Shown: positions 23,120 to 38,574, counted from the first letter of the stretch. The stretch is DNA of 49,060 nucleotides from Pseudobdellovibrionaceae bacterium (GCA_044359815.1 JBIKLL010000014.1:1-49060), one strand, 5' to 3'. Notes: generated by a model from the letters alone, not told the origin. Numbers and translations are program-made.

Positions 23120-23902
23120 ATGGCAAACAAAACTAAGACTTCTAAATCAAAACCTGAATCTGCGATTAAGAATCCATCCAGAGTTTTGTCTTCTGCTGAT
23201 CAAACTCCCCCTCCGACCCCACTGACAGCCAAGGAAAAATCTGTACTCGAATTTGTCGAGCACAGTTTGGCTGACAGTGGTGTGTCTCCTTCTTACCAAG
23301 AAATTAAGGAGCACTTTGGGTTTGCATCTTACAACTCGGTTCAAAATTATCTGAAACAACTTATCAGTAAGGGGTACATTCAAATCCCCTCTAACCAAAA
23401 GCGAGCCATTCATATTCTGCGCCCATCGACGGCAGTGCAAACTCAGCTTGAAGAAATCCGCGCATCCTCTCCTCGTGCTTCACTTCTACCCAATAGGAGT
23501 GAGGGCGGGGAGCTAATTTCTCTTCCTCTGCTGGGCCGTGTGGCGGCAGGGGCTCCCATTGAAGAATTTGATCACGATGAACATATCGATGTCCCGCCCA
23601 GTATGATTCGAAATCCCACAAAATCCTTTGCCCTGAAGGTTAAGGGAACCTCAATGGTGGATGATGGGATTTTAGATGGGGATATTATTTTGGTTCAGCG
23701 ACAGGCCAGCGCCATTAATGGCGAAATCGTTGTGGCCACAGTGGAAAACGAATCCACTGTTAAAAGACTTTTTACTAATACAGACTCAAACCGAAAACTC
23801 GTGGAACTGCGACCTGCAAACTCAACAATGAAATCCATGTGGTACCCTCCGGATCGAATACATATCCAAGGGGTCGTCGTCGGCTTGATAAGAAAGTTCT
23901 GA
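23120..23902 (+). CDS. lexA: SOS repressor LexA
   Basis: N-terminal wHTH (LTAKE...SPSYQEI...SVQNYL), cleavage site VAAG, catalytic Ser (GTSM) and Lys (TVKR). Confidence 0.96.
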   Translation: MANKTKTSKSKPESAIKNPSRVLSSADQTPPPTPLTAKEKSVLEFVEHSLADSGVSPSYQEIKEHFGFASYNSVQNYLKQLISKGYIQIPSNQKRAIHILRPSTAVQTQLEEIRASSPRASLLPNRSEGGELISLPLLGRVAAGAPIEEFDHDEHIDVPPSMIRNPTKSFALKVKGTSMVDDGILDGDIILVQRQASAINGEIVVATVENESTVKRLFTNTDSNRKLVELRPANSTMKSMWYPPDRIHIQGVVVGLIRKF

Positions 23903-23981
23903 TAGGAAAAATGAAAACACAAACGCGCTGAAATAACCCAGCAGAATTTCTGCTGAGCGCACAAATCTGACGGTGTACACT

Positions 23982-24065
23982 GATTTGCCTTCTGGTCCGC
24001 TGGCCGATCCGCTTGTTGATCTGCTGGCCGATTCATTTGCTGATCTGTTTTTAGATCTGTTTGCA
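23982..24065. repeat. Seven degenerate 12-bp tandem repeats between lexA and imuA
   Basis: GATTTGCCTTCT GGTCCGCTGGCC GATCCGCTTGTT GATCTGCTGGCC GATTCATTTGCT GATCTGTTTTTA GATCTGTTTGCA. Confidence 0.75.
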
Positions 24066-24096
24066 AATCGTCGCACTGTCATTTACGGAGGAATTT

Positions 24097-24861
24097 ATGT
24101 CTGCAGCTCTTGCATTGGCAGAGTTTTCTGCCAAAGGGGATTGCTTTACCCAAAATTTGCCCAGACCACAGTCGTTGGCACAGCTTCGGCAGGAGCTGGG
24201 AAACAAGCTTTTGTCAGTGGATCAGTTGCGCCCACCTGAGGGATTACCCACAGGAATTTCCACATTCGATAATTTTTTGCTGTGGAAGGGAATTCCCAAA
24301 GGAGAAATTTCTTTGCTGTACGGTCATCCAGGGACAGGCTGTACTTCGCTATGGCTCAGCACCGCCAGACAGATTCACGCTCAGAAAAAATGGGTAGCTT
24401 GGGTTAATTCGGATTGGGAATTACTGCCATCACATCTGGTGCAAAAACAATTGGATCTGAACCGATTGTTGGTGGTGCAAAAGCCCAGCGATAAATCGCA
24501 GATGTTTTATATTTTGCAAGAACTGATCACCAGCTCATTGTTTGAAATGATTGGATGTCATCTGCAGTTGATGGATTTAAAAATTCATCAATTAAATAAA
24601 CTCAAAAAACTGGCCAGTCTGCACAAGGTCGCGTTGGTGATTATCAGCTCGGCCCGCAGACTCAGAAATCATCCTCTGTTTAGTTTGATTATTGATTTTC
24701 AGAAGGACTTTTTAACAGTTCGCAGAGCTTTACACAGACCAACCCCCTTCCACATAGCGAGGGATCGTTCGGAAACACAACTTAATTACACCGGGAGGAA
24801 TATCTATGAGAACTTTATGCGTGAACTTACAATGCCAAACGATGGACCCAAACTGCGCTGA
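24097..24861 (+). CDS. imuA: ImuA-type RecA-like mutasome protein
   Basis: GGAGG RBS; TGISTFD...GIPKGEI, degenerate Walker A GHPGTGCT, LDLNRLLVV; precedes imuB-dnaE2. Confidence 0.85.
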   Translation: MSAALALAEFSAKGDCFTQNLPRPQSLAQLRQELGNKLLSVDQLRPPEGLPTGISTFDNFLLWKGIPKGEISLLYGHPGTGCTSLWLSTARQIHAQKKWVAWVNSDWELLPSHLVQKQLDLNRLLVVQKPSDKSQMFYILQELITSSLFEMIGCHLQLMDLKIHQLNKLKKLASLHKVALVIISSARRLRNHPLFSLIIDFQKDFLTVRRALHRPTPFHIARDRSETQLNYTGRNIYENFMRELTMPNDGPKLR

Positions 24862-26131
24862 GATTTTTTTAAAATTTTCTCCGCGGGTGCAGATCAGAAA
24901 ACCTGGCTACCTGTTTATTGATATTGAATCCACCAGTGGCTTGCATGGTGGAGAATTTAAACTGATGAAGGCGGCCCTGCAGGCTGCGCGCAAATTTGCC
25001 AGCAACGCCACGGCGGCCATTGCCGATACGGCTTATTTTGCCCAAGCCTTGGTCCACTATAAGCCGTTTGAAATTTCACCCAGCGGCGAAGATCACAAAA
25101 TTTTGTTTCCCCTGCCCGTTTCAATTTTGCGAGAAATGGAGGGCCTAGAACCCTGGAGTAAAGTGAAATCCATCGAGCATGTGATTGGGACCTTCCAAAA
25201 CGTGGGGTTTCACACCTTTGAAGATCTGTTTCATCTGGAGCTCAGTCAATTTCGCGAACGCTGGGGCGAACTGGGTGTCACCATCTGGAAAAGGGTTCAT
25301 GAACGCGAAAAACAAGTGATAGCCCCGTTGATTTCACAGGAACCTCTGTCGGGGTATTGTCATCTGGATGATCCCATCAGTCTGCAGCAGTTTTTAGAAC
25401 CCTATGTAAAGAAACAACTGGAATATTTATTTATGCGGCTTGAGGGTTTAGGCAGATTTGCAAAAAAAGCCGAAATCACCTTGCACTGTGAATATTCAAA
25501 CAAAAAATATTTTATCCCCGTAGAGCCGGTGAAACCCAATCGTGATCTGAATTTGTTTTTTGATCTGTTTTGCAAACGACTGTCTGAGCTGGATTTGGAA
25601 AATCCGATTCGTGAATTTGAAATCTATATTTATGATGTGCCAGAAAAGGTAACACAGTTGGATTTTTTTGAACCCCGCGATGTCAGCGAGGACAAATGGC
25701 GACGCCTGATCAGTTTTGCAAAAGCTGCTGGCTGCAATATGGGATTTTTGCAGATTGAAAATTCGTATCTGCCAGAGGCCAGTTACAGTCTGAAGGATGA
25801 CTGGAGCCAGGATTTAAACATCAAAGACGTTGTTGAGTTTTCAGAAGAAGCCATTCAGATCAAAACTTCCTATGGAAAAGCTTTATTGAAAAGCCCCAGG
25901 CCTTCGCTGCTACTAAAGGAACCCAGTCCTATGCCAAGTGATCAGATAAAAAGTCTGAAGTTTTTAACTCAGCTACCCCAAGAGCGTGTCGAAAGCCCTT
26001 GGTGGAAATCTTGGATTCAGAAATTTCCGCAGCGTGATTATTATTTTGCCTTTACCGCCACCGGACAATTGCTGTGGGTGTTTCAAAATGCTTTTGATCA
26101 AAACTATTATTTGCACGGTTATTTTGATTGA
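24806..26131 (+). CDS. imuB: ImuB, catalytically inactive Y-family polymerase
   Basis: FSPRV...LFIDI; QLDFF clamp-binding-like motif; C-terminal ERVESPWW...RDYY...WVF...YLHGYFD. Confidence 0.9.
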   Translation: MRTLCVNLQCQTMDPNCAEIFLKFSPRVQIRKPGYLFIDIESTSGLHGGEFKLMKAALQAARKFASNATAAIADTAYFAQALVHYKPFEISPSGEDHKILFPLPVSILREMEGLEPWSKVKSIEHVIGTFQNVGFHTFEDLFHLELSQFRERWGELGVTIWKRVHEREKQVIAPLISQEPLSGYCHLDDPISLQQFLEPYVKKQLEYLFMRLEGLGRFAKKAEITLHCEYSNKKYFIPVEPVKPNRDLNLFFDLFCKRLSELDLENPIREFEIYIYDVPEKVTQLDFFEPRDVSEDKWRRLISFAKAAGCNMGFLQIENSYLPEASYSLKDDWSQDLNIKDVVEFSEEAIQIKTSYGKALLKSPRPSLLLKEPSPMPSDQIKSLKFLTQLPQERVESPWWKSWIQKFPQRDYYFAFTATGQLLWVFQNAFDQNYYLHGYFD

Positions 26132-29100
26132 AATCCGTGGCTGCCTATGTGCCCTTTGTTGAATTATTGGGTCGGACTAATTTTTCATTTCTGCAAGGGG
26201 CCTCACATCCTGACGAAATGGTCGAAGCCGCCATAGAGCTGGGGTATAACGGCATCACCATCTGTGATCTGCATGGCCTGTACGGAGTTGTTCAGGGATA
26301 CAAAACGGCTAAGGCTCCTTCACTGTTTAAGGCTTCTTTGCATTCCAGCCAAGGATTTAGCTACCTGATTGGAACCGAATTTATTTTGACCGATCAATCA
26401 CACATTGCCCTGCTGCCAATGACACAAATTGGTTACACACAATTATGCCAACTGATCACCGTTGGTAAACGGCAGGCCACCAAAGGCTTTTGCAAACTGT
26501 CACTGACAGATATTAAAAATCATAATCAGGATCTGATTGCACTGGCACTGCCGCCAACCAGTGTGGACCGATTTGAATCCCTGCACGAGATTTTTGGCGA
26601 CCGTCTGTATTTGCCAGTCTGGCGGGACATGACCTGGGAATCGCGACAGTTTTTACAGCAGGCTCTGTATCTGGAAAAATCCCACAATGCCCAGCTGTTT
26701 GTTACCAACAGACCCTACATGCATTCGCCAGAGCGAAAACCTGTGTTTGATACTTTGACCTGCATTTTACATCATACGACCCTGGATGAAGCAAAAACAA
26801 AACTGCTGCAGAATTCTGAAAATCATCTAAGACCCATCGAAGAGCTTCTAAAAATCTGGAGCGACAGGCCTGATCTGCTGGCTGCCACACAAAAAATTGC
26901 TGACAGAATTCAATTTGATCTGGGGCAGATTCGTTATCGGTATCCGACGGCTCAGTTGCCAGCGGGAATGAGCTCTGCTGAATATTTAAAAAAACTGACC
27001 CACGAGGGTTTGCACTGGAGGTTTCCGGATAAAATTCCAGACAGTGTTTTAAAAATGGCTCAGCATGAGCTTACGCTGATCGCAGATCTGAAATACGATG
27101 ATTATTTTTTAACTCTTTATGAAATTTGTCAGTTTGCACGGGAAAAACAAATCCTTTACCAGGGACGAGGCTCGGCTGCAAATTCGGTGGTTTGTTTTGC
27201 CCTGGGACTGACAGCGGTTGATCCGACCAAGGTGGATTTGCTGTTTGAAAGATTTATTTCAAAAGAACGCGACGAACCCCCTGACATAGATATTGATTTT
27301 GAACACCAACGCCGCGAAGAAGTGATTCAGCATATTTATCAAAAATACGACGAAAACCACGCGGCCATGGTGTGTACCATCATCAGATATAAATCGCGCA
27401 TGGCTTTGCGTGAAACGGCCAAGGTTTTTGGGATTCCGCTGGGAACCATTGATCGCATAATCAAGTTTATGGGTCGCGATGGAATGCGCAGGCTCAAGGA
27501 AACCGAAACTATTTTTGCAGAATTTGGAATCGATTCTGAAAAATGGATGATGATGATGGCCATTGCCCAGGGGATTTACGGATTCCCACGTCACGTGGGG
27601 ATTCACACCGGAGGATTTTTGATCACTCAGGATTTTATTTGCCAGATGGTTCCCGTTGAAAAAGCCACGATGCAGGGCCGTTACGTTATACAGTGGAACA
27701 AAGACGATGTGAATTTTATGGGATTAATGAAAATCGATTTGCTGTCGCTGGGAATGCTGACTGCGATAAAAAAATCTCTTGAATCACTGAGCAAACATAA
27801 GAACCTGCATTACAATCTGGCCACCCTGCCCGCCGAGGACAAAACCACTTACGATATGATCAGTCGGGCTGATACTGTTGGGGTTTTTCAGATCGAATCA
27901 CGGGCACAGATGCAAACACTGCCCAGGATGAGGCCACGAAATTTTTATGATCTGGTGGTTGAAGTGGCGTTGATCCGTCCAGGCCCATTGCAAGGGGGCA
28001 TGGTGCATCCCTATCTGCGCAGACGCCAGGGGCTTGAAAAAGTCCAATATGGTCATCCAAAACTGGAAAGCGTGTTGAAAAAAACTTTGGGTGTTCCGAT
28101 TTTTCAAGAGCAAGTTATGAAAATCGTGATGGAAGCTGCAAGCTTTAGTGCCGGAGAAGCCGACGAACTGAGACGATTGATGTCTGCAGCTTGGCGGGGC
28201 AAGGGCACCATGGATGGAGTCCGCCATCGCATCATGAGGGGATTTAAAGAAAACGGGATTCCTGATGATTACGCAGAAAAAATTTATAAAACCATAGAGG
28301 GCTTTGCGAACTATGGCTTTCCTGAAAGCCATGCGGCCAGTTTTGCCCTGCTGACCTATGCAAGTTGTTATTTAAAATGCCATCACCCCGAGGTTTTTAC
28401 CTGCAGTTTGTTAAACAGCCAACCCATGGGATTTTATGCGCCCCGAACGTTGATCGCCGATGCTCAGAGACACGGCGTCCGTGTGCGGCCCTTGTGCGTG
28501 CAAAAATCTGATGTGGAATACACTCTGGTTAAATCAGACACTGCCGTTCAACACAATCCCGATGCCGCTTTTAAAAAAGACCTTGATCCGAAATGTGCTG
28601 CTGAGTCTGCAAATCGTTTCTTGGATCTGCAGATTGGGCTTTGTTCTGTGTATGGGGTTGCACAACATTTTTTAAATATTTTGGTCCAAGAGCGCACAAA
28701 AAATGGCAGCTTTAAAAATCTGTCTGATCTGATTATGCGAACCTGTTTGCCAAAATCAGTTTTGCTCAGACTGGCTGCCAGTGGTGCCATGTCCAGTTTT
28801 AAAATCCCGGCCCGCGAATTGATTTGGCAAATCGAAGCCACAGAATTAAGTGATCAAAGTTTTCTGTGGACTCTGCCGCGCGAAAGCTTTCAGTCACTCA
28901 CAGCCAATCAAACAAAACCCGAATCCGAATGGCAGTCATTGCACCGCGAGTACACGACAAAGGGATTTTCGATCGACAATCATCCGATCAAATTGCTGCG
29001 GCAAAAATCTTGTTTGAGCTCAAAAGATTTATCCAAATTACCTAATAAAAAACGTTTGCAGATTATGGGTCTGTTGGCCTTTACCCAAAGACCGCCGACG

Positions 29101-29292
29101 GCCAAGGGTATGTGTTTTATGACTCTTGAGGATGAGTTTGGATTTATTAATGTTGTGGTGCCGCCATTGGTTTACGAAAAGTGCAGATTAGTGATTTATA
29201 ACCAGTGTTTGTTGCAGATTTCGGGTGTGCTCGAAAAAAAATCAGGGGTTTTAAACGTTCGTGCAGATCATATTAGTGGTCTATATCGCTAA
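26128..29292 (+). CDS. dnaE2: Error-prone DNA polymerase III alpha subunit DnaE2 (ImuC)
   Basis: PHP NFSFLQGASHP, GRGSAANS, PPDIDIDFEHQRREEV, GVFQIESRAQM, YGFPESHAASFA, NSQPMGFY, OB-fold RPPTAKG. Confidence 0.97.
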   Translation: MKSVAAYVPFVELLGRTNFSFLQGASHPDEMVEAAIELGYNGITICDLHGLYGVVQGYKTAKAPSLFKASLHSSQGFSYLIGTEFILTDQSHIALLPMTQIGYTQLCQLITVGKRQATKGFCKLSLTDIKNHNQDLIALALPPTSVDRFESLHEIFGDRLYLPVWRDMTWESRQFLQQALYLEKSHNAQLFVTNRPYMHSPERKPVFDTLTCILHHTTLDEAKTKLLQNSENHLRPIEELLKIWSDRPDLLAATQKIADRIQFDLGQIRYRYPTAQLPAGMSSAEYLKKLTHEGLHWRFPDKIPDSVLKMAQHELTLIADLKYDDYFLTLYEICQFAREKQILYQGRGSAANSVVCFALGLTAVDPTKVDLLFERFISKERDEPPDIDIDFEHQRREEVIQHIYQKYDENHAAMVCTIIRYKSRMALRETAKVFGIPLGTIDRIIKFMGRDGMRRLKETETIFAEFGIDSEKWMMMMAIAQGIYGFPRHVGIHTGGFLITQDFICQMVPVEKATMQGRYVIQWNKDDVNFMGLMKIDLLSLGMLTAIKKSLESLSKHKNLHYNLATLPAEDKTTYDMISRADTVGVFQIESRAQMQTLPRMRPRNFYDLVVEVALIRPGPLQGGMVHPYLRRRQGLEKVQYGHPKLESVLKKTLGVPIFQEQVMKIVMEAASFSAGEADELRRLMSAAWRGKGTMDGVRHRIMRGFKENGIPDDYAEKIYKTIEGFANYGFPESHAASFALLTYASCYLKCHHPEVFTCSLLNSQPMGFYAPRTLIADAQRHGVRVRPLCVQKSDVEYTLVKSDTAVQHNPDAAFKKDLDPKCAAESANRFLDLQIGLCSVYGVAQHFLNILVQERTKNGSFKNLSDLIMRTCLPKSVLLRLAASGAMSSFKIPARELIWQIEATELSDQSFLWTLPRESFQSLTANQTKPESEWQSLHREYTTKGFSIDNHPIKLLRQKSCLSSKDLSKLPNKKRLQIMGLLAFTQRPPTAKGMCFMTLEDEFGFINVVVPPLVYEKCRLVIYNQCLLQISGVLEKKSGVLNVRADHISGLYR

Positions 29293-31507: not shown

Positions 31508-32479
31508 ATGAATCTACCACCATTTCAATTGACCCCAAAGATAGTCAATCTCTTAAGTGAAATTCAATTTATGCTGGGTTCCCTGCAACCGCAGGCCTTA
31601 ACCAGGGCACCAGTTAAGCTCAGAAAAGAAAATAAAATCAAAACCATTCAACACAGTCTGGCCATCGAGGGTAACAGCCTTAACCTGACTCAAGTCACCG
31701 ATCTGGTTGATGGAAAAAGAGTGTTGGGACCAAAACGCCAAATCCTAGAGGTCCAAAATGCGATCAAAGTCTACGAAACGCTTGCTAGCTTTAAGTGGAA
31801 CTCTGAGAAAGATCTTCTTAGAGCCCATAAATTGCTGATGCAAGACCTGGTAAAGAATCCCGGCAAATACAGAAGTGAGAGTGTTGGCATCTTCAAAAGC
31901 GGAGTCGTGAAACACATGGCCCCTTCAGCCAAACAGGTTCCGAGCCTAATGGGTAAGCTATTTAATTTCTTGAAACAGGATTTAGACACTCACCCTATAG
32001 TCAAAGCCTGTGTTTTTCACTACGAGCTTGAGTTTATTCACCCGTTCATGGACGGAAATGGCCGCATGGGCAGACTGTGGCAACAGGTCATTTTAATGAA
32101 CTTTTCTGAAGTTTTTGAATTTCTATCTATTGAAACTTTAATTCATCAAAGGCAACGCAACTATTATTTGGCACTTGAGAAAAGTGACAAGGCTGGTGAA
32201 TCAACAACCTTTGTTGAGTTTAGCCTTGAAGTCATTCGAGACACACTCACCGAATTTTCAAATGATTTCAGGCCAAAGAAAGCTAGTGCCAGCGATCGCA
32301 TTGAATCTGCTCTCGAAAAATTTGGACCCAGGCCCTTTAGTCGAAAAGATTACTTGAGATTTCATAAAACTCTATCAACGGCCCAAGCAAGCCGGGATCT
32401 TAAGCATGCAGTCGATCAGGGGTTAATCAACGCCAAAGGAAGCAAAGCTCTAACCACTTATAAAAAGGTATCGACGTGA
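31508..32479 (+). CDS. Fic-family adenylyltransferase with a C-terminal winged HTH
   Basis: Intact HPFMDGNGRMGR; N-terminal inhibitory motif SLAIEGN; C-terminal STAQASRDL..AV..G. Confidence 0.93.
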   Translation: MNLPPFQLTPKIVNLLSEIQFMLGSLQPQALTRAPVKLRKENKIKTIQHSLAIEGNSLNLTQVTDLVDGKRVLGPKRQILEVQNAIKVYETLASFKWNSEKDLLRAHKLLMQDLVKNPGKYRSESVGIFKSGVVKHMAPSAKQVPSLMGKLFNFLKQDLDTHPIVKACVFHYELEFIHPFMDGNGRMGRLWQQVILMNFSEVFEFLSIETLIHQRQRNYYLALEKSDKAGESTTFVEFSLEVIRDTLTEFSNDFRPKKASASDRIESALEKFGPRPFSRKDYLRFHKTLSTAQASRDLKHAVDQGLINAKGSKALTTYKKVST

Positions 32480-33416: not shown

Positions 33417-34298
33417 ATGAGTATCAAAATTTTGTTAGCAATGTTAATCGGACTTTCCTTTTTGGGCTGTGGCAAAAAAAACGCAGCTGACGATGAAACA
33501 CTAAATGCAGTGGAAGCCACTGTTGAATCCGGTGTTTCAATGATTTCGGGTCTAAGCGACGATCAATCGGGTACCAGTTACGCCAGCAAAAGCGAAACTG
33601 CCCCTAAAAATATTTGGCAATTACTGCTGGGTGAAAAAGCCTATGCAGATAACTGCACCAGGGCGATTTTTCAAAGCTGTGTTTCCGGAGTCAAAACAAC
33701 GGACTTTGATTCTTGCCAAATTGCTGGAACACTCAGATCTATAACTGGCAATGTGACCCTGTCTTTCAGTGATTCAGGATGTTCAATGGCCAGTGTCGGC
33801 AATAGCGTTAACAGAACCTATGATCTGGATATCAGCGGCCCCCGCGGAGGAGTTGTTTCGATCACTTCAGCAACCAATGCTGATTACAACGGTAATTCGT
33901 ACGGTGGCGGCGGTGTGCTTGAAAAAACCAGTGGTGGTTGGGAAATCGAGATCCTGGGCAGACATTCTGCTTTGTCAAAAAACGGAAGGCAGTTTTTTAA
34001 TATCAGCACCAGAACACTGAGCAACGTTCAAATTACCGGAAGCCTGGACCGATCAAACCGAGTGGTCAACAGCGGACAAATAGAAGTGAATCATAATTTA
34101 GCGAAATTCACAGCTCTGTTTCAGCCTAACAATCTGACTTGGACATCAAGCTGCTGCCATCCTGTATCAGGATCATTAGGTGTCACATACAGCGGATCAA
34201 AAACTGGAACAGCCACTGTTACATTTAATGGTTGCGGAACAGCAGAGCTAGATGAAGATGGACAAAAAACTGATCTTACGCTGAGCTACTGTGAGTAG
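33417..34298 (+). CDS. Cys-rich, beta-rich lipoprotein
   Basis: AGGAGG RBS; lipobox FLGC; multiple Cys; first gene of the ECF operon. Confidence 0.8.
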   Translation: MSIKILLAMLIGLSFLGCGKKNAADDETLNAVEATVESGVSMISGLSDDQSGTSYASKSETAPKNIWQLLLGEKAYADNCTRAIFQSCVSGVKTTDFDSCQIAGTLRSITGNVTLSFSDSGCSMASVGNSVNRTYDLDISGPRGGVVSITSATNADYNGNSYGGGGVLEKTSGGWEIEILGRHSALSKNGRQFFNISTRTLSNVQITGSLDRSNRVVNSGQIEVNHNLAKFTALFQPNNLTWTSSCCHPVSGSLGVTYSGSKTGTATVTFNGCGTAELDEDGQKTDLTLSYCE

Positions 34299-34838
34299 AT
34301 GAATGACGATACACAGTTAATAAAACAAATCGCAGATGGGGACTCAAAAGCATTTGAGTCCTTGTTAGATAAGTACAACAACCAAATCTATGGATTTTGT
34401 ATGAGAATGTTAGCAAATAAAAACTTAGCAGAAGACATCGCCCAAGAAACCTGGCTGAGGGTTATTCAGAACGCAAAAAATTATTCGCCCAAAGCTCAGG
34501 CCAGTACTTGGATAATCACGATCGCTAAAAATCTGTGCCTGGATGAAATCAGAAAAACCGCAAAATTCGAAGAGCTTGATGCTGAAACCGAAAATCTGAC
34601 CCAAGATCCCAGCGAGAATTGCCTGGAATATCTGAGCAAAGCTTCTGACACAGAAACAGTAAAGCAAGCCCTGGATCAGCTTACAGACCGGCACCGCACA
34701 GTGCTTTGTCTGTGGATTTATGATGAATGCTCGTTGGCTGAACTGGCTATTCAACTTAAAATTTCAGTCAATGCGGTTAAGGTTCTGCTTCACCGGGCTA
34801 AACAAAACTTTGAAATCGAGTATTCAAAACTAAAATGA
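34299..34838 (+). CDS. ECF-type RNA polymerase sigma factor
   Basis: GDSKAFESL, AEDIAQETWL, TWIITIAKNLCLD, region 4 SLAELA...VKVLLHRAK. Confidence 0.93.
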   Translation: MNDDTQLIKQIADGDSKAFESLLDKYNNQIYGFCMRMLANKNLAEDIAQETWLRVIQNAKNYSPKAQASTWIITIAKNLCLDEIRKTAKFEELDAETENLTQDPSENCLEYLSKASDTETVKQALDQLTDRHRTVLCLWIYDECSLAELAIQLKISVNAVKVLLHRAKQNFEIEYSKLK

Positions 34839-35197
34839 AAAACAAAAACGATATTTTTAATGATAAGCCCTCTAAAGATTTCAAAGACAAATTGATGTCT
34901 AAGGCCTTGCCATTATTGGCTGATAATAAAAGACAAAACCGCAGGTCTTTTTTTGCGAACTGGCAGTTTATTGTTGCCGCCAGTGCCACAGCCACGGCCG
35001 CATTAGTTGTTTTGTTAAACAGAAAATCTGTTCCCGATAATCAGTTTGAAATATTAGAATTTGCGGAACTGGACGCCAACGACGAGGAAATGCAACTACT
35101 GACTGAACTTGAACTTGATGAGTTTGAATTATTAAGTGACGATCAGTTTAGTAAGGAGTTTGAAGACTTTGTTACCACTGAAACCAAGGAGTCCTAA
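34835..35197 (+). CDS. Putative single-TM anti-sigma factor
   Basis: ATGA overlap with the sigma gene; short cytoplasmic domain, one TM helix, acidic Leu-rich C-terminus. Confidence 0.7.
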   Translation: MKNKNDIFNDKPSKDFKDKLMSKALPLLADNKRQNRRSFFANWQFIVAASATATAALVVLLNRKSVPDNQFEILEFAELDANDEEMQLLTELELDEFELLSDDQFSKEFEDFVTTETKES

Positions 35198-35322
35198 TGA
35201 ATAACGACGATAAAGAAATCATCGAGAATCTGGATATGTTGATGAATCTGGATTTGTTGGAAGATGAAGACAATGAGGTTATCGAAACCATGGACGAAGG
35301 GCGGGAAAATGAACCGTCGTAG
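35197..35322 (+). CDS. 41-aa acidic small protein (below the ORF-track cutoff)
   Basis: AAGGAG RBS, TAATG coupling; MNNDDKEIIENLDMLMNLDLLEDEDNEVIETMDEGRENEPS. Confidence 0.65.
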   Translation: MNNDDKEIIENLDMLMNLDLLEDEDNEVIETMDEGRENEPS

Positions 35323-35701
35323 TTTTTTAAAATTTTCATTGTTAGCCGCAGCCGCTGGTACCTTTGCCCTTGATTCAAAGGCTCAGACAACCACTGGCAC
35401 CAATCCAACTTGGGATAATCTGACTGATGCGCAAAAGGACGAATTGCGACAAAAATGGAAGAGATTTAAATCTTTGCCAGCAGACAAACAAGAGCGGATT
35501 CGCACGGCCTTTAGAAGGTTTCAGGGATTTTCGCCCGAGAAAAAAGAACGCATTCGCGCCAATTTTCAGCGCTGGAAAAATCTGAACGCCGATCAAAAAT
35601 CAAAAATCAGAACCAGACATCAACGATGGATGAAGCTAACACCTGAACAAAGAAGAAATCTAAAAATGAAGTGGATGCACAAAAGACGACAGAATCGCTA
35701 G
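35309..35701 (+). CDS. DUF3106-like helical repeat protein with a Tat signal peptide
   Basis: MNRRSFLKF Tat motif; repeated W/F..L.pe.k.r.r..f.rw units; highly basic. Confidence 0.8.
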   Translation: MNRRSFLKFSLLAAAAGTFALDSKAQTTTGTNPTWDNLTDAQKDELRQKWKRFKSLPADKQERIRTAFRRFQGFSPEKKERIRANFQRWKNLNADQKSKIRTRHQRWMKLTPEQRRNLKMKWMHKRRQNR

Positions 35702-35725: not shown

Positions 35726-35819
35726 GCCATTGCTCGACTTTGGGCCAATGAATTGGTTATTTTGGCCGATGCCTCCAGCATAATGAATTTGATAAAAATT
35801 TGCTGCCATTGCTCGACTT
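35726..35819. repeat. 15-bp direct repeat within degenerate ~40-bp tandem units
   Basis: GCCATTGCTCGACTT at 35726-40 and 35805-19; AATGAATT recurs in both intervening units. Confidence 0.6.
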
Positions 35820-35845
35820 GCAAGGGTTGCTGCTTGTGCCGATAA
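35820..35845 (+). promoter_or_regulatory. Candidate sigma28/FliA promoter for the 670-aa gene
   Basis: GCAAG-N13-GCCGATAA ending 10 nt before ATG 35856. Confidence 0.6.
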
Positions 35846-35855
35846 GTCTGTCATA

Positions 35856-37868
35856 ATGAATGTCCTTAAATTATTAGTTAGTGTTATTTTTCTTCCAGTT
35901 TTTGGATTTAGCTCGGAACTTGGTAAACCAAATTCTGGGACTAAATCCTTTCAGGGATGTCATCAATCCTGGCAACAAAGTTGTCAAAAATTTGCAGCAC
36001 AGTACGGGGAAGATAATCTGATCCCCTGTAATAAAAACCCCTCTGAAACCACTACAGACAGCACTGTTACAGATTGCTTTAATGGAATCAGGGATTCCAT
36101 AGAGTTCACCGCCATGGGACCGCTTTATCTGATCGAGGCAGTTCAGAATTTTTCGACTCAGTTTATCCAGTCTTGCAAAGGCGAAACCTTAGAGCTCAAT
36201 ACGCTAAGGCAGGAAGCCCGTCAAAACCTGCTAAGATTGGAAGCTGAATATTTTAAAGAACTTAATAAAACCCAGCCTGCACCCGTCGAGGGATCTTGGG
36301 AAACATTAACATGCGAAGAGCTTAATCAGATTAATACAGTTTGCAGTTCCGAAAATACTTCTGATTTCTGTTTAGAAACCAAAATCAAACAGCAAAAAGC
36401 ACAGCAGCTGGTACAAAAAAGCATTTACTATCAGCAACTGTCTGTATCTAAAGAGTTAAACGGTAAAAAAGTTATTTTTAACGATTCCCAAGTGAATCGA
36501 GCCATGTTGGATTTCAGAGTCAATCAATGCAAAGATTTTATCCGCAAATACCAACCAGTCACAAAAATTCAGAACGATTATTTAAAAAAAATAAAAGACA
36601 GCAGTCGTAAAACCGGTGCCTGCACAGAGGCCATCAATGAGGTTTTAGATTGGACCCAAGAAGCCGCAGTTGGTGCTGGAAATTTTATGTTGGATAATCG
36701 CGACCATTCAAATGCTGCCAGACAAAACAGATCAGCGGCGCGACTTAAAGAACAATCATGCTTTACAAGCGCCTATCTGACCAAAAGAAACTGCGAAATA
36801 GCTTTTGATATTGCTACCATGATCGGCCCCTCGGCTGTCGCTGCATTGAAACTGAATAAAACATTCCAATCTGTGAAAGCCATGATCACACCCAGCAGAT
36901 CTGGCTCAGGCATAGTTTTAGCGGACGCAGCCGCGAGCAAAACCATTGATAGGTATTTAACCCTAACCAGTGATATTAACGTCGCCAATGCTCTGAAGCG
37001 GGCTCACGAAATGGACGGATCCTTTGGTAGCTTTACCGTCCCCGCGCTAAGGCAAAAGTACAAAAATATTCTGGATGAACTGTCAAAAGTTGGCGTCACA
37101 GGTGATGAAGCAAAACAATTGGCCAGCAAATGTATCAGAAGCGGACTTTGTGGGGATCTACCGGCAGACCTTGTAACTCTGAATATGGCTGCCGAAGATT
37201 ATTTAAAACAAATACCTTCAGCCTATGAAGAGTATGAAACCGCGCGGAAGACGGGGGATGTAAAAGACGCAGCAGAGATTCTGGACAAGTATATACCCTA
37301 TATATGGAAAGATCTTGATCTTAGCAACGATGGAAAAATTCCCCATTCCCTGCGAAAATACCCAAAACCAAAAGCGGGTTCAGCTTCTGGTTCGGTTTCC
37401 GGCTCGAGTGTTAGGTCTTCGGCATCAGGCTCAAGTGTTAGGTCTGGATCAAATATAGGATCCAGTGCCAAAAGTGACTTTGATATAGTCAGAGAAAAAC
37501 CCAATTTAATTCAACCCGACAAAGTGTATGATGTCCCAATTGCTGAGGGAACAAATTTAGCATTTAGGGCCTCAAAGGTTCAGTTTCAAAAGAATGCATT
37601 AAAGGACCTTGATAAGCTGGACAGTATAACACAAGGAAAACTTCTGGATGCGTTAGTTGTGGGAGGTACCGAGACTCAAGGAAAATCTGGCTTAAAACTT
37701 ATGAATGATGTTTCACCTGGATTTGTTGAAGTAAAAGCCATACCTGGAAAAATGCGTTTGTTAGGTTGTATGAAAAATGGAGTTTTAGAAATTAAAAAAG
37801 TCTTCGAAAAAAAAGAAAATGGGCAAACCCTTGCTTCCCGTCCCGAGCTTAAAAAACTTTGTAAATAA
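35856..37868 (+). CDS. Secreted multidomain protein with a C-terminal RelE/ParE(HigB)-like domain
   Basis: Signal peptide, Cys-rich helical N-terminal half, hydrophobic helix, Gly/Ser linker, then VQFQKNALKDLDKLD...FVEVK...MRLLG...LEIKKVFEKK. Confidence 0.65.
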   Translation: MNVLKLLVSVIFLPVFGFSSELGKPNSGTKSFQGCHQSWQQSCQKFAAQYGEDNLIPCNKNPSETTTDSTVTDCFNGIRDSIEFTAMGPLYLIEAVQNFSTQFIQSCKGETLELNTLRQEARQNLLRLEAEYFKELNKTQPAPVEGSWETLTCEELNQINTVCSSENTSDFCLETKIKQQKAQQLVQKSIYYQQLSVSKELNGKKVIFNDSQVNRAMLDFRVNQCKDFIRKYQPVTKIQNDYLKKIKDSSRKTGACTEAINEVLDWTQEAAVGAGNFMLDNRDHSNAARQNRSAARLKEQSCFTSAYLTKRNCEIAFDIATMIGPSAVAALKLNKTFQSVKAMITPSRSGSGIVLADAAASKTIDRYLTLTSDINVANALKRAHEMDGSFGSFTVPALRQKYKNILDELSKVGVTGDEAKQLASKCIRSGLCGDLPADLVTLNMAAEDYLKQIPSAYEEYETARKTGDVKDAAEILDKYIPYIWKDLDLSNDGKIPHSLRKYPKPKAGSASGSVSGSSVRSSASGSSVRSGSNIGSSAKSDFDIVREKPNLIQPDKVYDVPIAEGTNLAFRASKVQFQKNALKDLDKLDSITQGKLLDALVVGGTETQGKSGLKLMNDVSPGFVEVKAIPGKMRLLGCMKNGVLEIKKVFEKKENGQTLASRPELKKLCK

Positions 37869-37876
37869 AAATAAAT

Positions 37877-38449
37877 TTATTCAACAAAATGTAATTCAAA
37901 AGGTCTTGATGCTGGATCGATATTTATATCGACGGGATCATAGCGTCTTACATAACCCTGACATCCGCTATATGGTAATGTGTAAGTCAGTTCTAACATT
38001 TGTTCCTGGTGAATCAGAGTTTTTGATGAGGTATCATTACAATCTGGAATTTCGTAAACCTTGATATCTACAGAATCGAATACTTCGTACACAGAAGCTA
38101 ATATTGAACTGTCTGTTCTTTGAATGTTAACGTACTGGCCTATGTTTACAGCTTCACAGGTATTTCCCTTAAAAACATAATCAGCTCTGACATATCCGGC
38201 ATTTGGATTTTGTGGATCGACAATTCTGGGTGTAAATTCAAATTCATAGTTTGAATTCAGCTGACCCAGCATTGAATGAAATTTAAAGGGAATGGGCTCA
38301 ATTATAAACTGCATGGTGCAGACTTCATAATCATAGCCATCGGAATCACCCAGCTTGGGCTCTGAAGCCACTTCTTTGCAGCCGATATTGGCAGCACAAG
38401 CTACCAATACAGTGATTTTAAAAACGTATGATTTTAAGACATTCCCCAT
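37877..38449 (-). CDS. Hypothetical lipoprotein
   Basis: Start placed at ATG 38449 (MGNVLKSY...ANIGC lipobox), downstream of a sigma54-like motif. Confidence 0.65.
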   Translation of the reverse strand: MGNVLKSYVFKITVLVACAANIGCKEVASEPKLGDSDGYDYEVCTMQFIIEPIPFKFHSMLGQLNSNYEFEFTPRIVDPQNPNAGYVRADYVFKGNTCEAVNIGQYVNIQRTDSSILASVYEVFDSVDIKVYEIPDCNDTSSKTLIHQEQMLELTYTLPYSGCQGYVRRYDPVDINIDPASRPFELHFVE

Positions 38450-38464
38450 ATAACAACTTATAAT

Positions 38465-38481
38465 TGCAACAGAAATGCCAA
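38465..38481 (-). promoter_or_regulatory. Candidate sigma54 promoter
   Basis: Minus strand reads TTGGCATTTCTGTTGCA, a near-consensus -24/-12 element. Confidence 0.65.
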
Positions 38482-38574
38482 TTGGATCATCCCAAGACCG
38501 TATATACTCGGTCGCTGAGTCCTTTTCGCAGCCCAATCTGTTCAGGTTTTTAAATTCGTACGAAAGATAACCAG

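Follow-up and report, generated by a model that had tools for sequence, protein, structure and literature searches.

In a 49,060-nucleotide stretch of DNA from a Pseudobdellovibrionaceae bacterium (GCA_044359815.1 JBIKLL010000014.1:1-49060, hereafter the window), the open reading frame (ORF) P0001 at 35856..37868 encodes a protein of 670 amino acids (aa), in which a signal-peptide-like start precedes an all-helical N-terminal domain containing 12 cysteines, a disordered Gly/Ser linker and a C-terminal domain of about 115 aa. Our structural models and profile comparisons place this last domain in the RelE/ParE fold, with Gp49/HigB as the nearest type. Toxins of the RelE/HigB kind are textbook intracellular poisons, checked by an antitoxin encoded next to them. 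Here, a RelE-like tail found without a partner antitoxin suggests that the protein is probably a weapon sent against other bacteria. We put at about 50% the probability that it is an exported RelE/HigB-type RNase toxin acting on other bacteria, its producer being protected by Sec export and by folding outside the cytoplasm. The first-pass annotation of this DNA, made from the sequence alone, had seen in it the candidate effector of a predator; the architecture that it described is confirmed by our analysis, whereas its interpretation as a predatory toxin is partly supported. The parts of the gene and its product are the following.

35856..37868, + strand: ORF P0001, 670 aa, a modular protein with a signal-like start; the frame is intact and the same DNA is present in independent metagenome contigs
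35856..35912, + strand: signal-peptide-like N-terminus, aa 1-19, read by eye; MNVLK followed by a 13-residue hydrophobic run, with small residues (G-F-S) before the likely cut
35943..36890, + strand: all-alpha 12-Cys 'carrier' domain, aa ~30-345, defined by homology to the proteins P0003-7 and P0010 and by AlphaFold2 (AF2) helices at aa 37-344
36795..36854, + strand: moderately hydrophobic conserved helix EIAFDIATMIGPSAVAALKL, aa 314-333; 19-mer hydropathy 1.48, AF2 helices at 305-323 and 325-332
36912..37313, + strand: helical middle region, aa 353-486; AF2 predicted local distance difference test score (pLDDT) up to 91 at aa 371-430, Cys pair 426/432
37305..37463, + strand: disordered Gly/Ser/Lys/Pro linker, aa 484-536; AF2 pLDDT below 50
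37521..37865, + strand: predicted C-terminal RelE/ParE-superfamily domain, Gp49/HigB-like, aa 556-670 (hereafter the tail domain), from the AF2 model, structure search, hhalign and conservation

The DNA of this ORF is real, since it recurs in contigs from four other lake-water metagenome runs with 0-1 letters differing per contig. The metagenomes in which the sequence is unchanged are labelled 2020 and 2024, and the contigs of the four runs hold no variation usable in a selection test. The genome itself is an assembly of 2.95 Mb in 125 contigs, 91% complete. A predatory lineage had been proposed for it, in line with the asd gene of the window, whose nearest named relatives are those of Bdellovibrio and Pseudobdellovibrionaceae (63-67% identity). 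The signal peptide, likewise proposed earlier, was called by eye and from a hydropathy figure (Kyte-Doolittle 11-mer mean of 2.88 at aa 6-16), with which the AF2 model agrees in placing a helix at aa 2-17, followed by disorder. In the full-length model (pLDDT 70.6), helices are the only secondary structure up to aa 485. The protein contains 16 cysteines, of which 12 lie at aa 35-313, exactly the number that had been estimated for the helical N-terminal half, two at 426/432 and two at 638/669. This even count in every part (12 + 2 + 2) fits the expectation for a disulfide-bonded exported protein.

The C-terminal domain and its likeness to HigB and RelE

The first-pass annotation had recognized a RelE/HigB-like residue pattern from position 37578 onwards. 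The pattern is present, but the modelled fold begins earlier, at about aa 556 (nucleotide 37521), with an extra N-terminal strand (aa 557-559) that carries the invariant Tyr558. The AF2 model of aa 551-670, built on an alignment of 15 sequences, has a pLDDT of 89.7 and a predicted template modelling score of 0.83. In model numbering, it consists of a strand (24-27), two helices (29-36 and 40-52), four strands (62-65, 73-77, 83-90 and 93-101) and a final helix (113-116). When Foldseek was run with this model, the credible rows were all RelE, HigB, YoeB, YafQ or ParE (probability ~1, best E value 3.6e-3). VIA-align found a RelE/ParE-type domain in all 50 entries listed, with Z scores of 8.8 to Mycobacterium tuberculosis HigB1 (7awk; 93 residues aligned, root mean square deviation 2.7 Å) and 8.4 to Escherichia coli RelE (4fxe_E; 76 of 82 residues, 2.2 Å, 22% identity). 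In a search of 48,161 representative chains that was independent of Foldseek, ranks 1-22 were occupied by the RelE/ParE superfamily (Z 8.2-4.7) and the first clearly unrelated chain appeared at Z 3.9; the solved proteins listed with this fold are all toxins or nuclease effectors.

Profile-profile comparison leads to the same superfamily. With hhalign, we aligned 19 tail-domain sequences against toxin genes of the same phylum, 31 of the Gp49 and 30 of the ParE_toxin family. The match to Gp49 (probability 89%, E value 2.3e-6, 82 columns) was better than that to ParE_toxin (79%, 1.5e-5, 74 columns), and the controls, reversed alignments and an unrelated alignment, gave 0.1-0.3%. The two toxin families matched each other at 96% (1.9e-9, 68 columns). 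The RelE/HigB call of the first-pass annotation is thus supported twice, in fold by the structure matches and in remote homology by the profile-profile scores.

The alignment to Gp49, which ends at N655, places E625-V-K627 on the 'E-l-R' of this family, R634 on 'y-R-v-f-Y' and F650-E-K652-K653 on 'f-x-K-K', the last being the feature from which a HigB/Gp49 affinity had initially been deduced. In the model, E-x-K is carried by strand 2 and R by strand 3, and F-x-K-K follows strand 4. For HigB-TAC, an extract of PMC9098466 proposes E66, R68, N73, R77, F93, K95, Q98 and K99 as catalytic residues, equates R68, R77 and K95 with K54, R61 and R81 of RelE, and reports that the mutations K95A, R68A and R77A abolish toxicity. 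By sequence alignment, E625, K627, R634, F650 and K652 match the proposed catalytic residues E66, R68, R77, F93 and K95. In a close subfamily of 15 sequences, E625, K627, R634 and the two cysteines C638 and C669 are each conserved in 15/15 and K652 in 11/15; in a phylum-wide set of 19 members, R634 is present in all and K627 in 17. The tail domain is also strongly basic, with an isoelectric point (pI) of 9.66 in the 670-aa protein. The same holds for 34/34 rows of the family (median pI 9.9), to be compared with 9.8 for canonical Gp49 and 10.0 for ParE/RelE toxins of the same phylum.

The likeness to Gp49/HigB toxins (PF05973; HigB-TAC 7awk/7nbu, S. pneumoniae HigB 6af3) therefore extends from the modelled fold (Z 8.8 and 8.2, 92-93 residues aligned) to the best profile match, the aligned E-x-[KR], R and F-x-K-K, and the basic pI. 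In contrast to these cytoplasmic toxins of ~110 aa, the domain described here forms the C-terminus of a 670-aa exported-type protein, has no Pfam match at E<=1 and is accompanied by no HigA antitoxin gene. It also bears the extra strand with Tyr558, and in place of the long helix that holds Q98 and K99 in HigB, and that touches mRNA and the P-site tRNA there, it has a short tail with a conserved Cys at its end. The comparison with E. coli RelE (4fxe, 4v7j), a ribosome-dependent mRNA endonuclease, is similar: K627, R634 and K652 take the positions of RelE K54, R61 and R81, according to the HigB-TAC equivalences in the extract of PMC9098466, but here there is no RelB partner, the protein has a signal-like start, and Leu665 replaces an aromatic residue. 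More generally, the gene differs from a type II toxin-antitoxin module in having no adjacent antitoxin, its downstream ORF being convergent and its upstream gene, encoding a DUF3106 protein, belonging to a cassette that is conserved without the toxin gene; the product, with its 670 aa, signal-like start and 16 cysteines, likewise differs from a small cytoplasmic toxin.

A family of the tail domain and a carrier with changing C-termini

Among 1.84 billion representative proteins, HMMER found 22 that match the 670-aa protein at E<=0.001, of which 15 cover aa ~505-670 only, and in each of these the match lies at the C-terminal end. When 5.8 billion proteins were searched by word index, the whole protein as query gave nothing, and the tail-domain profile retrieved four proteins among those of 'longer' lengths, all 'hypothetical'. 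The few members that bear a name are each a 'hypothetical protein' of Bacteriovoracaceae or Oligoflexia. A profile search of 401 Bdellovibrionota genomes detected the domain in 19 of them, own genome counted. Two groups can be distinguished. The first has the Cys pair, consists mostly of small proteins (143-385 aa) and includes the 670-aa protein; the second is composed of proteins of 560-650 aa without the Cys pair. The smallest members, of 143-145 aa, amount to a signal peptide, a short region and the domain, and a signal-like hydrophobic start is present in 15/15 complete genome-derived ORFs with the tail domain.

No neighbouring gene is conserved across the 19 loci and the window, except in one orthologous pair and one probably coincidental pair. 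In particular, none of these 20 loci has a conserved antitoxin or immunity gene beside it, in agreement with the absence of such a neighbour pointed out initially, and the nearest downstream ORF of at least 100 aa is convergent in 12/20. The tail domain thus defines an unannotated clade of signal-bearing proteins without a conserved neighbour gene, restricted to Bdellovibrionota as far as searched, and it lies outside every curated family tested. Our literature searches (Bdellovibrio with RelE toxins or polymorphic toxins, and Tox-RelE; supplements of the cited papers excluded) retrieved no description of this family. The genome also carries an ordinary small Gp49/HigB-like gene (G000:C111:758-982), whose 33 bits exceed the Pfam cut-off, and a weaker match on contig C31; it has no ParE_toxin match. 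The exported clade thus coexists with toxins of the ordinary toxin-antitoxin kind.

Several observations on individual members deserve mention. In nearly all of them, a Cys lies 3-15 residues past the predicted signal cut, often within C-x-E/D-hydrophobic. The genome encodes a 285-aa paralogue (L024, G000:C79:9634-10326, - strand) whose start is signal-like and whose copy of the domain is divergent (E value 1.1e-8 against the profile); 13 nt downstream of it begins a co-oriented 234-aa ORF without known family. The only genome of the same family with a tail domain, G028, has a frame of 693 codons (L003/L009, G028:C10:63507-67112) with one in-frame TGA between the first strand and the first helix of the domain, which could mean a pseudogene, a sequencing error or read-through. 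Finally, in members of 200-385 aa (P0012-P0022, L005, L007, L011, L015, L019, L020 and L024), the region that precedes the domain is acidic and helical (pI 4.4-5.5, net charge -3 to -12), and the domain itself is basic (+4 to +12); an acidic region facing a basic domain was found in 23/30 small members. As this charge pairing resembles that of an antitoxin bound to its toxin, it suggests a fused pro-region, and in the small members such an acidic helical pro-region may mask the basic domain in the manner of a fused antitoxin. An acidic pro-region in cis was also considered for the 670-aa protein and was dropped, the part that precedes its domain having a pI of 8.4.

The N-terminal part has a different set of relatives. 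Residues ~25-350 match six proteins, P0003-7 and P0010, all from metagenome assemblies, with E values from 3e-28 to 4e-06. Seven cysteines are invariant in the alignment of this family. C313, just before the helix EIAFDIATMIGPSAVAALKL, is invariant. This helix had been noted as hydrophobic; it is present, but its 19-mer hydropathy is moderate and it is therefore no clear membrane span. In a pairwise comparison of nine sequences, corresponding to seven distinct proteins, the parts before aa 345 match significantly in 36/36 pairs and those after it in 4/36. Two of these four pairs associate a fragment with its own full-length form and the other two link P0006 with P0010/P0030. The N-terminal domain thus belongs to a rare family whose members bear unrelated C-terminal modules, which is the swapping of C-termini that the first-pass annotation had proposed to look for among its homologues; these are metagenomic, and the domain is absent from the other 400 genomes of the phylum (1/401, own genome only). 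No relative was found in scans of genome-contig and metagenome-contig collections either. None of the proteins P0003-7 and P0010 belongs to a Pfam family at E<=0.1, and phmmer found no PDB sequence at E<=1 for the alternative C-termini of P0006, P0029, P0005 and P0007. This Cys-rich carrier domain is undescribed so far. Foldseek with the full-length model returned RelE rows only, plus helical-repeat noise (probability <=0.14) for the N-terminal 500 residues, a result that applies to these residues as assessed within the full-length model and makes no claim of a 'no known fold'. A PDB sequence search with the 670-aa protein gave coiled-coil or chance rows only and no RelE-type chain, and the ESM Atlas gave no usable lead for it.

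The alternative C-module of P0006 and P0010/P0030 also occurs as stand-alone frames of ~240 aa in two genomes of the phylum, L088 (G040:C27) and L089 (G338:C6), with E values of 3e-19 and 3.5e-7; the G040 frame has one in-frame TAA and looks kinase-like by eye (Gly-rich SGxEG motif, IIDF motif). In the middle region of the 670-aa protein, the last two helices are acidic, and aa 409-460 (37080-37235) contain a motif, KVG[IV]..AK.LA..CIR.GLCG, that is also present in a 311-aa ORF of another genus (L004, G041:C1; 40% identity over 52 aa). A second shared motif of this region, 'kAH.iG', was dropped as not significant (E 0.16-0.37). The Gly/Ser linker that follows has its two GSSVRS copies, as first reported, at aa 516 and aa 525; at the DNA level, Tandem Repeats Finder detected no tandem repeat in it.

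A secreted toxin domain of RelE type is not new as an idea: as extracted from Zhang et al. (2012, PMC3482391), Tox-RelE is listed among polymorphic-toxin domains with Sec/type II secretion system (T2SS) export, Imm54, HINT and RHS, and a classical RelE domain in a polymorphic toxin is noted in a single case. The protein described here resembles Tox-RelE and the BECR-fold RNases of that description in being a secreted-type multidomain protein with a RelE-type domain at its C-terminus, conserved [KR] and R, and Sec/T2SS-type export, and it resembles polymorphic toxins in sharing its N-module with proteins that have other C-termini. It is set apart from Tox-RelE, as described in that source, by the absence of Imm54, HINT and RHS (Pfam, protein and neighbour), by its lineage, the Bdellovibrionota, and by its subfamily-specific Cys pair. 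Unlike polymorphic toxins, it has no RHS or filamentous repeats and no pre-toxin/HINT domain (Pfam), the tail being preceded only by the low-complexity Gly/Ser linker, and in place of a downstream immunity gene there is a convergent orphan. Toxins of the CdiA-CT NC101 and colicin D/E5 class are distant, CdiA-CT and colicin D scoring only Z 3.4-3.7 against the tail domain. MafB toxins of Neisseria also have a signal peptide, a conserved N-domain of a few hundred residues and swappable C-modules; however, the N-domain is here Cys-rich and all-alpha, and no immunity gene corresponds to MafI. Membership in the MafB family was rejected, PF06255 not being matched at E<=1 and the ESM Atlas feature score of 0.86 lying under the tool's own bar. 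Cami1 (8phb/8phj; Z 6.4-6.5) offers another parallel, as it has a RelE-fold ribosome-dependent RNase as C-terminal domain without an antitoxin. Yet Cami1 is cytoplasmic and activated by cyclic nucleotides in CRISPR defence, whereas the protein studied here is signal-bearing and lacks a sensor domain.

Neighbouring genes and the upstream region

The features that surround the gene are these.

33417..35701, + strand: cassette of a lipoprotein-like ORF, an extracytoplasmic function (ECF) sigma factor, a putative anti-sigma factor and a DUF3106 protein with a twin-arginine translocation signal (Pfam)
35728-35740 and 35807-35819, + strand: 13-nt direct repeat CATTGCTCGACTT, two copies 79 nt apart within the 154-nt upstream gap
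35838..35845, + strand: GCCGATAA, an exact sigma-28 (FliA) -10 octamer ending 10 nt before the ATG
37877..38536, - strand: convergent neighbour, a 219-aa orphan ORF with a lipoprotein-like start (..LVAC..), 8 nt past the stop of the toxin gene

The ECF cassette recurs in at least four relatives (G040, G011, G005 and G017; loci L091-L094), its first gene with 46-51% identity. The gene that follows it differs in each of the four, these genes being unrelated and of no recognized family, which indicates that the toxin gene occupies a variable slot. The idea that the cassette and the toxin gene form one conserved unit was consequently dropped. The convergent neighbour matches no family in Pfam, NCBIfam or PADLOC, is present in 1/401 genomes of the phylum (own only), and has no homologue beside other tail-domain members.

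A FliA-type promoter had been proposed for the gene. The -10 octamer GCCGATAA is indeed present, but the other half of the sigma-28 consensus, which we take to be TAAA ~15 nt upstream of it, is absent at 14-16 nt, where the bases read TGCA, TTGC or GCAA. The octamer itself is barely enriched in the genome (97 copies vs 79 expected), and the site at 35838 is not among the eight that have both halves. No Shine-Dalgarno sequence is visible before the ATG at 35856. The 13-nt repeat CATTGCTCGACTT has these two copies only in the 2.95-Mb genome, each followed 18-24 nt further by GCCGAT, and the pair could be a duplicated promoter or operator.

Elsewhere in the window, the + strand cluster whose last member is the toxin gene is immediately preceded by a Fic/DOC-family gene (31508-32479; Pfam E 1.3e-22). 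What looks like an SOS mutagenesis cassette occupies 23120-29292, where a LexA gene comes first, and then a RecA-like (ImuA-type) ORF, an ORF of 441 aa and the gene of a second DNA polymerase III alpha subunit (DnaE2-type).

A probable toxin for other bacteria and the alternatives

We infer catalysis, delivery, target, import, linker cleavage, the disulfide, export-based protection of the producer and predation as steps of the following scheme. The gene product would be a Sec-exported, disulfide-rich carrier-linker-toxin, whose tail domain would act as a RelE/HigB-type endoribonuclease and cleave mRNA in the A site of the ribosome. This domain would be destined for the cytoplasm of another bacterium, prey or competitor. 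The N-terminal and middle parts may serve surface retention, receptor binding or import, and the linker may permit release of the toxin domain. The domain would fold only outside the producer, stapled by a C638-C669 disulfide whose cysteines are invariant in the subfamily. The producer would need no antitoxin because the chain would leave its cytoplasm unfolded through Sec.

Several points weigh against this scheme. As regards the domain itself, neither the 670-aa protein nor its tail was assigned a family by Pfam, NCBIfam or PADLOC (Pfam E<=1, for the whole protein and for aa 575-670), two profiles of the tail domain found no RelE-type chain among PDB sequences, Foldseek with the tail model gave zero rows at E<=0.001, and the Z scores of 8-9 barely exceed the range that the alignment tool calls 'middling'. 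The catalytic signature is also incomplete. The HigB residues N73, Q98 and K99 have no counterpart in the tail domain, and the long C-terminal helix that carries the last two is lacking, K653 being followed by ENGQTLASRPELKKLCK with a helix of four residues only. Four residues before the final Cys, Leu665 replaces the Tyr or Phe found in 12/15 subfamily members. We presume this aromatic residue to be the counterpart of Tyr87 of RelE. K652 is kept in 2/19 members of the phylum-wide set, so that some members of the wider family may lack catalytic activity. The C638-C669 disulfide, proposed from the conservation of the two cysteines, would tie the tail to the central strand, and a fold that depends on it would meet a reducing environment in the target cytoplasm. 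No route across the inner membrane of the target is evident in the protein, the helix EIAFDIATMIGPSAVAALKL reaching a hydropathy of 1.48 only, and classical polymorphic toxins have an adjacent immunity gene where here there is none. Finally, no RNA run figures among the listed holders of the DNA of this ORF and, the organism being an uncultured lake-water metagenome-assembled genome, its predatory lifestyle is proposed from kinship alone.

A broader proposal, which we regard as tentative and rather doubtful, is that Bdellovibrionota carry phylum-specific, antitoxin-free, Sec-exported RelE/HigB translation toxins, of which the 670-aa protein would be the version mounted on a swappable carrier, topology and redox state protecting the producer.

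Alternatively, the protein could be an exported scavenging RNase that digests, off the ribosome, the RNA and ribosomes of breached prey or of the environment, with no need for import and with N-terminal parts that only anchor or target it. It would thereby gain nutrients, in the same way as the DNases secreted by Bdellovibrio. The fold, the basic charge and the conserved E/K/R are accommodated as well as by a toxin, a digestive enzyme would naturally be exported without an immunity gene, the protein shows no import machinery (Pfam, full-length Foldseek), and members of 143-145 aa get by with a signal peptide, a short region and the domain. In addition, Bdellovibrio releases nucleases in sequence during predation, according to an extract of PMC7925074. 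We nevertheless consider this explanation unlikely. The best structural neighbours of the tail domain are ribosome-dependent toxins (HigB1, RelE and S. pneumoniae HigB), whereas ribosome-independent members of the fold, BrnT and MqsR, score low (Z 3.7 and 3.1). Domains of the RelE type have very weak activity off the ribosome, and a 550-aa carrier with swappable C-termini exceeds the needs of a digestive enzyme.

It is also improbable, in our opinion, that the domain has the RelE/ParE fold without cleaving RNA, either as a non-catalytic periplasmic or surface binding module or as a ParE-like inhibitor of, for example, gyrase. ParE toxins do share the fold (Z 6-7; 79% with hhalign to ParE_toxin), the low frequency of K652 in the wider family (2/19) agrees with such a role, and M. 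tuberculosis HigB2 and HigB3 are non-toxic in spite of the same fold, as stated in the extract of PMC9098466. That the Cys pair is conserved and export obligate suggests a domain residing outside the cytoplasm, away from any ribosome, and the pairing of an acidic region with a basic domain in 23/30 small members could be merely structural. However, the E-x-K...R that is invariant in the subfamily (15/15) occupies the catalytic positions of HigB and RelE, Gp49/HigB outscores ParE in the profile comparison, and all solved proteins listed with the fold are toxins or nuclease effectors. That the gene is an evolutionary leftover, recombinant or decaying in a variable locus and at present without function, is very improbable: its whole architecture occurs in this genome only (N-domain 1/401), its nearest family-level relative, in G028, has an in-frame TGA inside the domain, and it sits in a variable position behind a conserved ECF cassette, but its frame of 670 codons is intact, all 16 cysteines and the signature residues are kept, both domains are modelled confidently, and the sequence is unchanged in the metagenomes labelled 2020 and 2024.

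Returning to the exported toxin, its interest lies in a predicted RelE fold with a catalytic signature placed behind a signal peptide, across a clade in the phylum of predatory bacteria, with no partner gene. If the domain is active, the protein would be a concrete candidate for the means by which Bdellovibrio-like predators, or free-living bacteria related to them, incapacitate other bacteria. Immunity proteins would then be dispensable through export and folding outside the cytoplasm, and the polymorphic-toxin repertoire would gain two new domains, an unannotated toxin and a Cys-rich carrier. If it is inactive, the family would represent a rare reuse of the RelE fold outside the cytoplasm. 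Should the phylum indeed possess its own exported RelE/HigB toxins, the search for the factors by which protein synthesis of the prey is halted at an early stage of predation would have direct candidates in them.

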